A DNA stretch of 64,000 bases from Escherichia coli. Lineage in GTDB: Bacteria > Pseudomonadota > Gammaproteobacteria > Enterobacterales > Enterobacteriaceae. The position numbers and the translations under genes were made by a program. This document shows positions 3,446 to 13,630 of the stretch, piece after piece (within the stretch, counting starts at the first letter, position 1; each line of letters opens with the position of its first letter). The notes under the pieces were generated by a model. That model did no database searches and was not told where the DNA came from. It saw only the letters and a list, made by a program, of their open reading frames with translations. The stretch is taken from assembly GCF_003991155.1 (NCBI RefSeq), contig NZ_CP031293.1, one strand, 5' to 3'.

Positions 3446-4386
3446 GCGTGGGCTCCTTCATGACGACGAATACGCGGGTCCAGCGCGGCGTTGAGCAAAT
3501 CGACAATCAAATTACAGACCACAAAAACCACCACCATCATCAGCGTAAAGCACTGGATCACCGGATAGTCACGGTTGAAAATCGCCGACACCGCATAGCG
3601 CCCGACGCCCGGCCAGGCAAAGATGTTTTCGATAATCATCGTCCCGCCAATCAGTTCGCCAATGTGCATCCCCACGGCGGTGATCATCGGCAGCGAGGCA
3701 TTGCGCAGGATGTGGCGGCGTTCGGTCTGTTTGTCGTTCAGGCCGCGCAGTCGCGCCCAGGTCACATGACGCTGACCGGCGACGTCCAGCATACTGGCGC
3801 GCAGCAGACGCGCGTTAATCGCCAGCGACATAAAAGCGATGGAAACCGCAGGCAAAATGATGTGCTGCCAGCCGCCGTAACCCATCGCGGGCAGCCATTG
3901 CAGATACACTGAAAATGCCATCACCAGTAAAAACGCCAACCAGAAGTTAGGCATCGACACGCCAAGAAACGCGATAAAACGCACGGCGAAATCCGGCAGG
4001 CGGTCGCGATGGCGCGCCGCCCAGATGCCGAGCGGCACGGAAGTGAGCAGAATTAATACCAGCGCCGCACCCGCCAGCTCCAGCGTGGCGGGCAGGAAGG
4101 TCAGCATATCGTCCAGCACCGGGCGTTGGCTGGCGAATGAGATACCAAAGTCAAGATGCAGCGCTTTCCACAACCAGGTTCCGTACTGCACGTACAACGG
4201 CTGATCCAGCCCCAGCATGGTGCGGGTAGAAGCCAGCATTTCCGGCGTCGGCGGCAGGTTAGACAGACGCAGATAATCGAGCGCCGGGTCGCCGGTGCCG
4301 AGGCGCAGCATCAGAAAAATGATCACCGAGGCGGCGAGCACCATCGGGATCAGCAGCAGAAAGCGGCGTAATACATAACGCAACAT
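3442..4386 (-). CDS. nikB: Nickel ABC transporter permease NikB
   Basis: ORF track 314 aa polytopic membrane protein; 4-nt overlap with nikC. Confidence 0.93.
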
Positions 4387-9744: not shown

Positions 9745-10410
9745 TTAACTCGCCTGCAAAGCGTTGATTTCGGATTTATCTGCCAGTCTTTTCAACAGCA
9801 TATTGAGTAATACGCCATACATTGGCAGGAAGAAAACGATACTGATTAACACTTTGAAACAGTAATCGACCAGCGCGATTTCCATCCAGTGTTCAGCCAT
9901 AAAGGCATCCGGGCTACGCCAGAAGGCAATGAAGAAGAAGGCCAGCGTGTCGCTGACGTTACCAAACAGGGTGGAAGCCGTCGGTGCCAGCCACCAGTGA
10001 CGACTCTGACGCAGGCGGTTAAAAACGTGCACGTCGAGGATCTGCCCCAGCGCGTAGGCCATGAAACTGGCGGTGGCGATACGGGCGACAAACAGGTTGA
10101 AGTGGGCGAGCGCGCCGAATCCTTGCCATGACCCCATATAAAACAGCGATGAGATGATGTAGGAGATCAGCAATGCGGGGATCATTACCGCAAAGATGAT
10201 GCGACGAGCCAGCGGTGCGCCAAAAATACGCACAGTCAGGTCGGTAGCAAGGAAAATAAACGGAAAGCTAAACGCGCCCCAGGTGGTATGGAAACCAAAA
10301 ATGGATACGGGAAGCTGAACCAGATAGTTACTGGAGGTGATCACCAGAAGATGAAATAACGATAACCAGAACAACGCCTTATAGCGTTGAGTTTGCGAGA
10401 AAACGTTCAT
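9745..10410 (-). CDS. yhhQ: Queuosine-precursor transporter family inner membrane protein YhhQ
   Basis: ORF track 221 aa; polytopic membrane protein; synteny. Confidence 0.88.
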   Translation of the reverse strand: MNVFSQTQRYKALFWLSLFHLLVITSSNYLVQLPVSIFGFHTTWGAFSFPFIFLATDLTVRIFGAPLARRIIFAVMIPALLISYIISSLFYMGSWQGFGALAHFNLFVARIATASFMAYALGQILDVHVFNRLRQSRHWWLAPTASTLFGNVSDTLAFFFIAFWRSPDAFMAEHWMEIALVDYCFKVLISIVFFLPMYGVLLNMLLKRLADKSEINALQAS

Positions 10411-10630
10411 ATTGTACCTTTTTGATTAACCATTGGGGTGAGGGAACCCAATACGTACGACACGTCTGTTACCTTAACATAATAACGTGCTGACCCTTTT
10501 TTCGAGCCGCCGCATGATACTGCTTTACGTTAACAATGCAATGGTTAATTTTCACGCAATCGTTAACCTGGTTTGCTTACGGACTCACAGGGCGTAAACT
10601 AGCGCCGTTTTTTTATGTGATGAGAAGAAA

Positions 10631-10876
10631 ATGACCGATCTCTTTTCCAGCCCTGACCACACACTCGACGCACTTGGCCTGCGCTGCCCGGAACCAGTAA
10701 TGATGGTGCGCAAAACAGTGCGCAATATGCAGCCAGGTGAAACGTTGCTGATTATTGCTGACGATCCGGCGACGACACGCGATATTCCTGGGTTTTGTAC
10801 CTTTATGGAACACGAACTGGTTGCGAAAGAGACGGATGGACTGCCTTATCGTTATTTGATTCGCAAATCGGGGTAA
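10631..10876 (+). CDS. tusA: Sulfur carrier protein TusA
   Basis: ORF track 81 aa; conserved CPxP motif (LRCPEPVM). Confidence 0.95.
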
Positions 10877-10929
10877 GGTGGATCAGGCTAGCGGACCGAT
10901 CGCGCTCAATTTTGCGGCTTGCAACCGGT

Positions 10930-11070
10930 TTGTAGGACGGATAAAAAGTTCAAGCTGCATCTGGCGATACGGTGCGCAATGCCTGATGCGACGCTGTCGC
11001 GTCTTATCATGCCTACGAGTTCGATGCCCTGTGTAGGCCAGATAAGGCGTTTACGCCGCATCCGGCACGC
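10930..11070. repeat. BIME / REP element cluster
   Basis: REP-type palindromic units gcctgatgcgacgctgtcgcgtcttatcatgcctac and tgtaggccagataaggcgtttacgccgcatccggca read from sequence. Confidence 0.7.
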
Positions 11071-11090
11071 AAACGTAATGGAATGCACAA

Positions 11091-11399
11091 ATGGATTATT
11101 TAATTCCAGTTTGTCTGGCATTGCTGGGATTGCTCGCGATCTTCACCCCCAATTGGCTGATCCCTGTTTTTATCGTCGTGGGGGGATGGCTGGGGGTACT
11201 TGCCTGGGGTTGGCTCTGGCTAATGATTTTTTTACCTTTACTTAACGGTGTCGGGCTTGCTTATGCCCTGTGGTTGATGTTCAAAAGGCCATCCATAGCA
11301 TCCCGCCTGGTTGCTGCATGCTGTGTTATCTCCGTCATTCTGATGTTAGCGCTTTATTATGCTTTCCTGACTATGCCGCCGTTCCCGCCTCAGCACTAA
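11091..11399 (+). CDS. Hypothetical small Trp-rich membrane protein (about 3 TM segments)
   Basis: ORF track 102 aa in the convergent tusA/zntA gap, just downstream of the BIME; strongly hydrophobic, coding-like codon usage by eye; weak RBS. Not a gene I recognise. Confidence 0.35.
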   Translation: MDYLIPVCLALLGLLAIFTPNWLIPVFIVVGGWLGVLAWGWLWLMIFLPLLNGVGLAYALWLMFKRPSIASRLVAACCVISVILMLALYYAFLTMPPFPPQH

Positions 11400-11431
11400 G
11401 CCTGATAGCCAGAGGCTATCAGGCAACACTT

Positions 11432-13630
11432 TTACTTCCTGCGCAACAATCTTAACGCATTCGCCGTCACCAGCACCGTCGCACCCGTATCTGCCAGCAC
11501 CGCCAGCCATAGCCCGGTCATTCCTAACAGTGTGGTGACGAGGAAAACGCCTTTCAGCCCCAGCGCAATGGTGATGTTCTGGCGGATATTGGCGTGAGTG
11601 GCGCGTGCCAGTTCAATCATTTGCACCAGACCGCGCAGGTGGTTATGGGTTAATGCTGCATCGGCGGTTTCCAGCGCCACGTCTGTGCCACTGCCCATTG
11701 CAATCCCGATGGCGGCAGCTTTCATCGCTGGCGCGTCGTTAATACCATCACCGACCATCGCCAGCGGCGCATGTTGATTCAGCTCGGTCACCGCTTTGAC
11801 TTTATCTTCCGGCAACAGGCCCGCTTTAAATTCCAGCCCCAACTCCCCGGCAATTGCCGCCGCGGCGCGTGGATTATCGCCGGTGAGGATCACTCCTTTA
11901 ACCCCCAGCGCGTTCAGTTCACTGATAGCAGTTGCAGCATCGGCGCGCAGGGTATCCTGCAACGCAATGACACCCAGCACGTCATCATTACGTACTACCA
12001 GCACTACCGTTTGCCCGGCGCTTTCCAGTTCATTAATCAAACCAGCAAATGCATCAGCAGGATGTTTTCCGGCAGCGCATATCAACACGCGCTCACCGTT
12101 AACCTGCGCTTCAATGCCAGACCCGACCAGCGCCCGCTGTGATTGGGCGGTGGGAATGGCGAGTTCAGCAACCTGTGCTTCGCGCACAATGGCTTGTGCC
12201 AGTGGATGCGTCGCGCCTTGCTCGACCGCCGCCGCCAGTGTCAGCAGTTCAGATTCACTAATACCCGTTGCCGGATGAATCGCGGTAACGCGCGGTTTAC
12301 CGACGGTCAGCGTACCGGTTTTATCAAACGCCACCTGGGTAACACGACCCAGCTGCTCCAGCGCCGCGCCGCCTTTAATCAACGCCCCACGACGCGCTGC
12401 TGCCGCCAGCCCGGAGGTAATCGCCGCGGGCGTGGAGATAACTAACGCACACGGGCAACCAATCAGCAGCAGCGTCAGCCCTTTATAAATCCACTCTTGC
12501 CAGCTGGCGGCAAACAGCAGCGGCGGCACCAGCGTTACCAGCAGGGCGACGGCCATAATCGCTGGCGTATAAATACGGCTGAAGCGGTCGATAAACCGCT
12601 CAATGGGCGCGCGGCGCTCTTCGGCTTCTTCGATCAGTTTCAGAATCCGGTCAATGGCGCTGGCACCCGGTTCTGACAGCACTTCCAGCGTTACCAGACG
12701 GTCTACGCTGGTGGCTCCTGCAGGAACTTTATCGCCCGTTGCGCGCTCCACAGGAATGGATTCGCCGGTCAGGGCGCTTTCATCAAAACTGGCAAACGGT
12801 GAGAGCAGTTTACCGTCGGCAGGCAAACGCCCACCTGCGGCGACTTCAATCACATCGCCAGGGCGCAGGCTGTTAATCGCCACCTCTTCACGCTCACCGT
12901 TACGCAGACGCGTGGCGGTTTCCGGTTTCAGCGCCATTAACGCGCTAACGCCCTGACGCGCGCGGCTGGCGGCCCAGCCTTCCAGTCGTTCACCAATCAA
13001 AAACAGCAGCAACACCATCGCAGCTTCAGCCGTTGCGCCAATAAACAGCGCACCAATAGCGGCTACGCTCATTAACGTTTCAATGGCGAAGTAGCTGCCG
13101 GATTTGATCAGCCGTAATGCCTGACGAGCAATCGGGTACAGCCCAACCAGCGTGGTCGCGATAAACGCCAGTTGCCCGAACGGATGATTGAACTGCTCCA
13201 GACCCCAGCTGATTGCCATCATCACGATTAGCGTAATCAGCGGCAGATTCTCTTTCAGGCGTGATGCTTGTGGTTCGTCGGTAGCCTGTTCATCGCGCAG
13301 GGAATAGCCCGCTTTTTGCACCGCAGATTCAACTTGTGCACGGATGTCATTGTCGGCATCCACCACCAGTTTTTCGGTGGCGAACAACACCTGTACCTGA
13401 TTCACGCCTGCAAGCTGGCGCACGGCATTTTCTACCTTGCGCGCACAGGCGGCGCAGTCCATGCCGCTGACTTTCCAGCTATAGCGGGTGCCGGAGACGT
13501 TTTCAGAGAGCGTTGGCGTGCTGGAACATGCGCCGTCGCAGCAACAGTCGTTGGTGTTCTGTACCGTAGTTAGCGGTTTGAACGCAGCAAAGTGAGGGGC
13601 TTTCTTGCCGTGATTGTCAGGAGTCGACAT
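11432..13630 (-). CDS. zntA: Zn/Cd/Pb-exporting P-type ATPase ZntA
   Basis: ORF track 732 aa; N-terminal GMDCAAC metal-binding motif, CPC transmembrane motif, DKTGTLT phosphorylation site. Confidence 0.95.
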   Translation of the reverse strand: MSTPDNHGKKAPHFAAFKPLTTVQNTNDCCCDGACSSTPTLSENVSGTRYSWKVSGMDCAACARKVENAVRQLAGVNQVQVLFATEKLVVDADNDIRAQVESAVQKAGYSLRDEQATDEPQASRLKENLPLITLIVMMAISWGLEQFNHPFGQLAFIATTLVGLYPIARQALRLIKSGSYFAIETLMSVAAIGALFIGATAEAAMVLLLFLIGERLEGWAASRARQGVSALMALKPETATRLRNGEREEVAINSLRPGDVIEVAAGGRLPADGKLLSPFASFDESALTGESIPVERATGDKVPAGATSVDRLVTLEVLSEPGASAIDRILKLIEEAEERRAPIERFIDRFSRIYTPAIMAVALLVTLVPPLLFAASWQEWIYKGLTLLLIGCPCALVISTPAAITSGLAAAARRGALIKGGAALEQLGRVTQVAFDKTGTLTVGKPRVTAIHPATGISESELLTLAAAVEQGATHPLAQAIVREAQVAELAIPTAQSQRALVGSGIEAQVNGERVLICAAGKHPADAFAGLINELESAGQTVVLVVRNDDVLGVIALQDTLRADAATAISELNALGVKGVILTGDNPRAAAAIAGELGLEFKAGLLPEDKVKAVTELNQHAPLAMVGDGINDAPAMKAAAIGIAMGSGTDVALETADAALTHNHLRGLVQMIELARATHANIRQNITIALGLKGVFLVTTLLGMTGLWLAVLADTGATVLVTANALRLLRRK

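Follow-up and report, generated by a model that had tools for sequence, protein, structure and literature searches.

The 309-nt open reading frame (ORF) between tusA and zntA in the 64,000-nt stretch of Escherichia coli DNA analysed here (the window) is a genuine protein-coding gene under weak purifying selection, a conclusion that we regard as solid as far as sequence comparison can carry it. Taken as a whole, the results probably describe a gene for a small polytopic inner-membrane protein, which is older than the genus Escherichia, is transcribed by read-through from tusA and fills a dispensable accessory role. The gene order in the window is yhhS, dcrB (-), yhhQ (-), tusA (+), the ORF, zntA (-) and yhhN (-), and the coordinates are collected in Table 1. 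The list of open reading frames confirmed the position and strand given in an earlier note on this DNA, as well as the product length of 102 aa; the start codon is ATG. The description of the product as very hydrophobic and Trp-rich was also borne out, by a GRAVY value of 1.45 and six Trp among the 102 residues. Its only charged residues are D2, K65, R66, R72 and H102. The same note had called the ORF unrecognised and possibly missed by annotation, which was wrong, since RefSeq and UniProt both list the protein. It is 100% identical to the RefSeq 'hypothetical protein' WP_000385055.1, present at the same locus in strains ECCNB12-2 and SMS-3-5. The ORF corresponds to CDS CQP61_RS29725 in NZ_CP033635.1, annotated by PGAP as a hypothetical protein, and UniProt holds the product as the uncharacterized protein A0A1M2T030. 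Further RefSeq entries for this protein in Escherichia are WP_000385056.1 and WP_000385059.1. The database entries of the 102-aa protein carry no function, family or topology, its accessions were not found in the literature searched, and literature searches on DUF2004 and on the tusA/zntA context gave nothing relevant. The ORF is an already catalogued, real gene, evolutionarily labile and ordinary in kind.

Table 1. Features of the tusA-zntA region in the window, and positions of the DUF2004-annotated gene in the compared loci (numbered within each locus).
Feature	Coordinates	Strand	Basis
tusA, sulfurtransferase TusA	10631..10876	+	ORF list; annotated in identical RefSeq record
BIME, three alternating REPs between tusA and ORF	10931..11067	.	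sequence reading, Rfam, dispersal
Weak Shine-Dalgarno-like GGAA	11080..11083	+	8 nt upstream of ATG; conserved motif
Hydrophobic-protein gene, WP_000385055.1	11091..11399	+	ORF list, selection tests, synteny, AF2 model
G6 run in ORF, codons 30-32	11180..11185	+	sequence; frameshift variants
Hairpin, perfect 11-bp stem, 3-nt loop	11400..11424	.	inverted repeat I2
zntA, Zn/Cd/Pb P-type ATPase, convergent downstream	11432..13630	-	ORF list and RefSeq record
DUF2004-annotated gene, E. coli GF4-3	L004 1891-2385	convergent	
DUF2004-annotated gene	L016 3001-3495	convergent	
DUF2004-annotated gene	L018/L019 3001-3498	convergent	
DUF2004-annotated gene, E. fergusonii	L017 3001-3567	convergent	
DUF2004-annotated gene, distant contig	L015 688-1176	convergent	

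Ten distinct intact alleles, all of 309 nt, were taken from E. coli (four allele classes), E. marmotae, Escherichia sp. E4742, two cryptic lineages, Escherichia sp. MOD1-EC7003 and E. albertii. They were compared with a null in which the same 88 variable columns were moved to other sites with the same consensus base, in 1000 replicates. The pooled pN/pS was 0.38 against 0.735±0.157 in the null, and none of the 1000 replicates was as low; all ten alleles remained free of stops in 0.4% of the replicates (P = 0.004). The five other frames gave ratios of 0.86-2.05 or at least five stops, and the variable sites fell on codon positions 1, 2 and 3 in numbers of 26, 19 and 43. The earlier note had proposed a check of conservation and selection, and with these values the frame proved to be kept in diverged relatives. 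Constraint was strongest in codons 41-66 (0.22) and 81-102 (0.15), and codons 21-40 (0.82) and 67-80 (0.99) appeared near-neutral. Pairwise dN/dS of the alleles was 0.11-0.70. Set against the neighbours, the ORF had 0.1-0.5 vs 0.02-0.05 for tusA, zntA and yhhQ of the same genomes (0.00-0.07 over the genome pairs), and since the neighbours lie so much lower, the ORF protein evolves roughly ten times faster. Codon usage did not turn out to be host-like, as had been claimed: the CAI of the ORF was 0.54 vs 0.70±0.06 for the reference of 31 long ORFs of the window, and was no better than that of out-of-frame controls (0.58-0.61). The rare codons AGG, ATA, CTA, GGA and GGG occur in the ORF, and only its GC content (49.5%) is close to the host value.

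Disrupted forms of the gene exist as well. Some E. albertii carry a stop at W33, and the databases contain truncated or frame-switched entries for the ORF. The variants P0026, P0027, P0030 and P0038 change at the G6 run between the main frame and the +2 frame, the latter opening at an upstream ATG (MECTNGLF...). Judged from these sequences, the run is probably a mutational hot spot, at which slippage gave rise to several of the frameshifted database entries. Phase variation at this site was considered and rejected; the run is interrupted in most lineages, and a programmed switch is unlikely for that reason. In the earlier note, tolerated frameshifts or stops were named as evidence against a gene. 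A minority of the alleles are indeed disrupted and most E. coli have deleted the gene, whereas the frame is otherwise conserved with a purifying pattern of substitution. Since some alleles are disrupted and most E. coli have deleted it, we regard the gene as real but dispensable.

The ORF was found in 317 of 5426 complete E. coli genomes (5.8%), always in single copy and always on the chromosome, and the carriers include SMS-3-5 and O145:H28 strains. Identity to the ORF of the window was at least 99% in 92 genomes, 95-99% in 172 and 90-95% in 53; among the matches listed of the 317 carriers, the annotation was a hypothetical-protein CDS in every case. A search of 5.8 billion proteins gave homologues in Escherichia only (E. 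coli, E. marmotae, unnamed lineages and E. albertii). Outside E. coli, the tusA-zntA gap contains the same 309-nt frame in E. marmotae, Escherichia sp. E4742, MOD1-EC7003, other cryptic lineages and E. albertii. At every locus fetched the gene was located between these two neighbours, and its stop is 32 nt away from that of zntA unless a DUF2004 gene lies in between. No copies were found on phages or true plasmids, and tblastn detected no paralogue in the window. Several PLSDB 'plasmid' records containing the region are chromosomal in size or content, for instance CP125156.1 (5.37 Mb) and NZ_CP141089.1 (4.94 Mb).

The ORF is entirely absent from K-12 and B2 strains, and no hidden homologue after tusA was detected by tblastn in K-12, E. 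fergusonii, Klebsiella, Enterobacter or Salmonella. The length of the gap was compared with that of K-12, as the earlier note had suggested: the stop codons of tusA and zntA are 555 nt apart in the window vs 101 nt in K-12 MG1655, which is devoid of the REPs, the ORF and the downstream hairpin. In B2 the gap is 268 nt long and contains remnants; in the B2 strain NC101 the three REPs and the left hairpin arm are kept and the ORF is gone. Because NC101 retains the BIME and the left arm, absence of the ORF is a deletion and the derived state. The structure of the gaps indicates at least two different deletions, one giving the K-12-type gap and one the B2-type gap. The ORF is ancestral to the genus Escherichia and has been lost from about 94% of E. 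coli genomes. Other genes or nothing follow tusA in Salmonella, Klebsiella and Enterobacter, and the 3' side of tusA is a junction with variable gene content across Enterobacteriaceae. In the comparison of loci L023 and L024, a citrate chemoreceptor gene was seen 3' of tusA in Salmonella, and yhgN-asd-glgB in the Enterobacter record.

A convergent gene annotated as DUF2004 separates the ORF from zntA in E. coli GF4-3, in Escherichia sp. MOD1-EC7003 and in some E. albertii. The product of this NCBI-annotated gene comprises 162-188 aa, and the gene is present on a distant enterobacterial contig, too. Its presence does not follow that of the ORF: only the DUF2004 gene is found in E. fergusonii, and only the ORF in the window. 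The annotated protein gave no match to current Pfam, NCBIfam or PADLOC, and a scan of the genome collection with the DUF2004 pair gave one additional locus, that of Escherichia sp. MOD1-EC7003. In E. fergusonii CP031282.1 (L017 764-2964), zntA was called as two ORFs of 468 aa and 218 aa, compared to one of 732 aa, and may be disrupted in this strain.

When 1.84 billion representative proteins were searched exhaustively with phmmer, one relative beyond the close Escherichia cluster was obtained, designated P0039 (E 6.6e-6). This protein of 83 aa is encoded directly after tusA on a 1.4-kb enterobacterial contig (Logan ERR10299652, locus L015), and is 37% identical to the 102-aa protein over 82 aa (pairwise E 6e-16). 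The two have in common the C-terminal FPAQH and the loop motif P-x3-[ST]-R-L-[VI]-A, and their genes share the position right after tusA and a convergent DUF2004-like neighbour. The neighbour of P0039 is 58% identical to the DUF2004 gene of GF4-3, and a search with its protein gave Escherichia relatives only. TusA of the contig has 83-88% amino acid identity to, and is equally far from, those of Escherichia, Klebsiella, Enterobacter and Salmonella, and because of this equal distance the contig is assigned to another genus. There are also differences: P0039 is without the first helix, having three helices vs four in the Escherichia protein, and the residue after Met is K instead of D. Its gene is separated from tusA by a spacer of 27-36 nt without REPs and overlaps the DUF2004-like gene by 3 nt. 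A search with P0039 as query returned P0039 itself only, and in a blastn search of the contig against plasmids only tusA was matched.

The second possibility raised in the earlier note was that of a chance open frame in a REP-containing spacer, encoding nothing. The weak ribosome-binding site, the poor codon adaptation, the lack of Pfam matches and the absence from most E. coli would all agree with it. Nevertheless, both frame and length are kept in at least six Escherichia lineages, in which the dS of the flanking genes from the window is 0.1-0.5; pN/pS falls below every null replicate, ten intact alleles would seldom arise by chance, and third-position substitutions are enriched. In addition, a homologue occupies the same position in another genus with DNA that is just 58% identical to that of the window. 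On these sequence comparisons we regard a chance origin as effectively refuted and hardly conceivable, and the other possibility named in the note, a genuine small membrane protein, as the one that holds, given a frame conserved across Escherichia, a frame-specific purifying pattern and the homologue next to tusA. It could also be that the gene is a relic, once functional but now unexpressed or useless in E. coli and drifting to loss, with a constraint inherited from the past. The repeated independent deletions (the 101-nt gap of K-12, the 268-nt gap of B2 with its remnants, and the absence of the ORF from E. fergusonii) point in this direction, as do the stop and frameshift alleles, a dN/dS about ten times that of the neighbours, the poor CAI, and the REPs that part the ORF from tusA. 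A decayed gene is hard to reconcile with the three main E. coli allele classes (100%, 98.7% and 92% identity), which are all intact at 102 aa, or with dN/dS values that are lowest, 0.11-0.13, in the most closely related E. coli comparisons. The Shine-Dalgarno-like motif and the start codon are conserved, and the carriers among the matches listed have a CDS and not a pseudogene. We find a relic unlikely.

AlphaFold2, run on a 16-sequence alignment, predicted four helices at residues 4-18, 21-39(45), 47-65 and 69-93 (pLDDT 78.8, pTM 0.63); about three transmembrane (TM) helices had been expected in the earlier note, which is the number in P0039. Helix 1 (DYLIPVCLALLGLLAI) is similar to helix 2 (NWLIPVFIVVGGWLGV), with a score of 30 vs 15.6±3.1 for shuffles, and the alignment of P0039 to the 102-aa protein begins at residue 21. 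From this likeness and from the three-helix P0039 we infer that the first helix is an internal duplicate of the second, which arose in the Escherichia lineage. The segment K65-R66...R72 is the only basic loop and is placed in the cytoplasm by the positive-inside rule. In the model, the C-terminal tail (PPFPxQH) and the N-terminus of the four-helix form would both be periplasmic. The change after Met, from K in the protein with three helices to D in the one with four, is consistent with an inverted N-terminus.

The most likely function, suggested with low confidence, is a dispensable accessory one, in which the protein would bind a larger membrane protein or modulate it. That it works alone as a transporter or an enzyme is unlikely, because it has just 102 aa and four helices, and conserved residues that are charged or catalytic are absent from its membrane part. 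Family and defence scans (Pfam, NCBIfam, PADLOC) of the protein and of the whole family gave nothing above threshold, and neither the fold search nor the locus context offered a clue to function. AcrZ, KdpF, CydX and MgtS are small accessory inner-membrane proteins of E. coli, with one TM helix and fewer than 50 aa, and for each of them a partner with a nearby gene or a defined regulon is known. The ORF product is like them short, very hydrophobic, without catalytic motifs and presumably weakly expressed, and unlike them it has 102 aa and four predicted helices.

Three more specific roles were weighed against that of an accessory modulator. Immunity proteins of pore-forming colicins, microcins and ionophoric CDI toxins are proteins of about 80-180 aa with 3-4 TM helices, strain-variable and fast-evolving. 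The ORF product is alike in size, number of helices, strain-variable presence and fast evolution, and its site is a junction of variable gene content, as might be expected of an orphan immunity protein against a membrane-acting bacteriocin or a contact-dependent toxin. However, no toxin, export or CDI gene adjoins it in any of about 15 loci, and the lack of a toxin gene argues against such a role; the fixed chromosomal position, the vertical-looking divergence, the absence from plasmids and phages, the lack of PADLOC matches and a GC content close to the host value also speak against it, and we hold it to be highly improbable. Equally specific is the idea of a diverged stand-alone relative of subunit F of the Mrp/Mnh-type cation/proton antiporters (MrpF/PhaF). 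Matches to NCBIfam NF009243 were obtained for 14 of 16 family members (E 0.004-0.01), the family profile touches PDB 6u8y_B, an MrpF-like subunit, in the same segment (E 0.77), and the aligned motif reads F-[KR]-x-P-[ST]-x3-R-L-V-A ... A-L-Y-Y. Compared to MrpF/PhaF/MnhF (NF009243; 6u8y chain B), the product is likewise small and all-helical, with a similar loop motif after a TM helix, but the order of helices differs and fold searches give no support, so a relationship appears scarcely credible. Membership in the family was rejected at 17.1 bits vs a cut-off of 95 for NF009243 and with no Pfam match at E<=10; there is no mrp/mnh/pha operon, the neighbours in every locus being tusA, zntA and sometimes the DUF2004 gene. 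Finally, the product might be a membrane protein that has been the partner of TusA, the sulfur carrier, since ancestral times; it would tether the sulfur relay to the inner membrane or couple it there, and most E. coli would have dispensed with it. The TusA-like YeeD works with the membrane protein YeeE, a loose parallel, and we consider such a partnership very unlikely. It would make tusA and the ORF a bicistronic unit of long standing, the compact form of which survives in the distant enterobacterium, and this too we would expect only with small probability.

The analysis adds to the existing annotation a weak but real purifying selection on the ORF, a tiny family older than Escherichia and tied to the 3' side of tusA, and a probable gain of a helix by internal duplication, accompanied by the change of charge expected from an inverted N-terminus. 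Following repeated deletion, the ORF marks a minority of E. coli genomes, e.g., SMS-3-5 and O145:H28. It may serve as an example of how a fast-evolving small membrane protein arises, changes and disappears at a convergent junction rich in REPs. Should a partner or a phenotype be found, the product would count among the small membrane-protein modulators, whose number is growing. Beyond tidy annotation the importance is small, the gene being already in RefSeq and UniProt.

The BIME described directly upstream of the ORF was recovered as three REP units of alternating orientation, read from the sequence at 10931-10967 (degenerate), 10981-11016 and 11032-11067. They have the characters of REP/BIME elements, i.e., imperfect palindromes of about 35 nt, alternating and dispersed in many copies, and the left part of the gap has a median of 5 matches in an E. 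coli genome, with a maximum of 17. The REP-derived Rfam family naRNA4 gave partial matches at 10935-11013 and 11036-11070 (46.6 and 34.1 bits, under the gathering score of 59.5). K-12 (L002 3151-3251), NC101 (L025 1143-1230) and O145 strains have an extra repeat after tusA (…CCCTCACCCTAACCCTCTCCCCAGAGGGGCGAGGGGACC…), which looks like a boxC-type element. As this repeat is absent from the window (compared at 10877-10900), the spacer after tusA is a lineage-specific mosaic of repeat families.

The lack of a strong ribosome-binding site was noticed earlier and holds, the weak GGAA being the sole signal. TGGAAT(G/A)C precedes the ATG in all Escherichia loci, and AAGGAATGC is found at the same distance from the start in the distant locus L015. 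GGAATGC lies 4-5 nt before the ATG in both Escherichia and the distant locus, and the GGAA motif is conserved at every homologous locus, the distant one included. A promoter consensus scan of positions 10400-11600 found no promoter-like site and none upstream of tusA either; because the promoter of tusA itself was missed, the scan is uninformative. The last REP ends 23 nt before the ATG. Since these 23 nt, like the 27-36 nt spacer of the distant locus, leave no room for a private promoter, read-through makes tusA the probable source of transcription of the ORF. A terminator-like hairpin followed by a T7 run (GGCGTAAACTAGCGCC GTTTTTTTAT) was seen at 10591-10616 (+), about 15-25 nt upstream of the tusA start, and could be a leader, an attenuator or the end of an upstream transcript.

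A history that would accommodate these observations starts from an ancestral unit in which tusA and the ORF formed a bicistron, the protein had three helices and a convergent DUF2004-like gene adjoined. In the Escherichia lineage the first helix would have been duplicated, and D would have replaced K after Met as the N-terminus moved outside. The REPs may then have spread into the spacer that separates the ORF from tusA. Losses of the DUF2004 gene and of the ORF would have occurred independently in different lineages, leaving 94% of complete E. coli genomes without the ORF. In the carriers, transcription from tusA would run on across the BIME as far as the 11-bp hairpin shared with zntA, and the ORF would be the distal cistron of this read-through transcript, with poor translation.

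This hairpin follows the stop codon of the ORF directly and that of zntA at a distance of 7 nt, with folding energies of -20.6 kcal/mol (z -3.5) on the + strand and -22.4 kcal/mol (z -2.9) on the - strand, and it is kept in all loci with the ORF but without the DUF2004 gene. Its tails are AACACUUUUAC (+ strand) and UUAGUGC (- strand), with no canonical U-run, and a terminator scan made no call. We regard it as a putative 3'-end structure shared by the two convergent transcripts, for which the roles of terminator and 3'-end stabiliser are both candidates. In one cryptic Escherichia lineage (L008, around 4310-4335) the loop is TCT and not AGA, its reverse complement, while the stems are identical, and these sequences suggest an inversion of the palindrome. 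In NC101 the left arm that is kept is of the TCT type.
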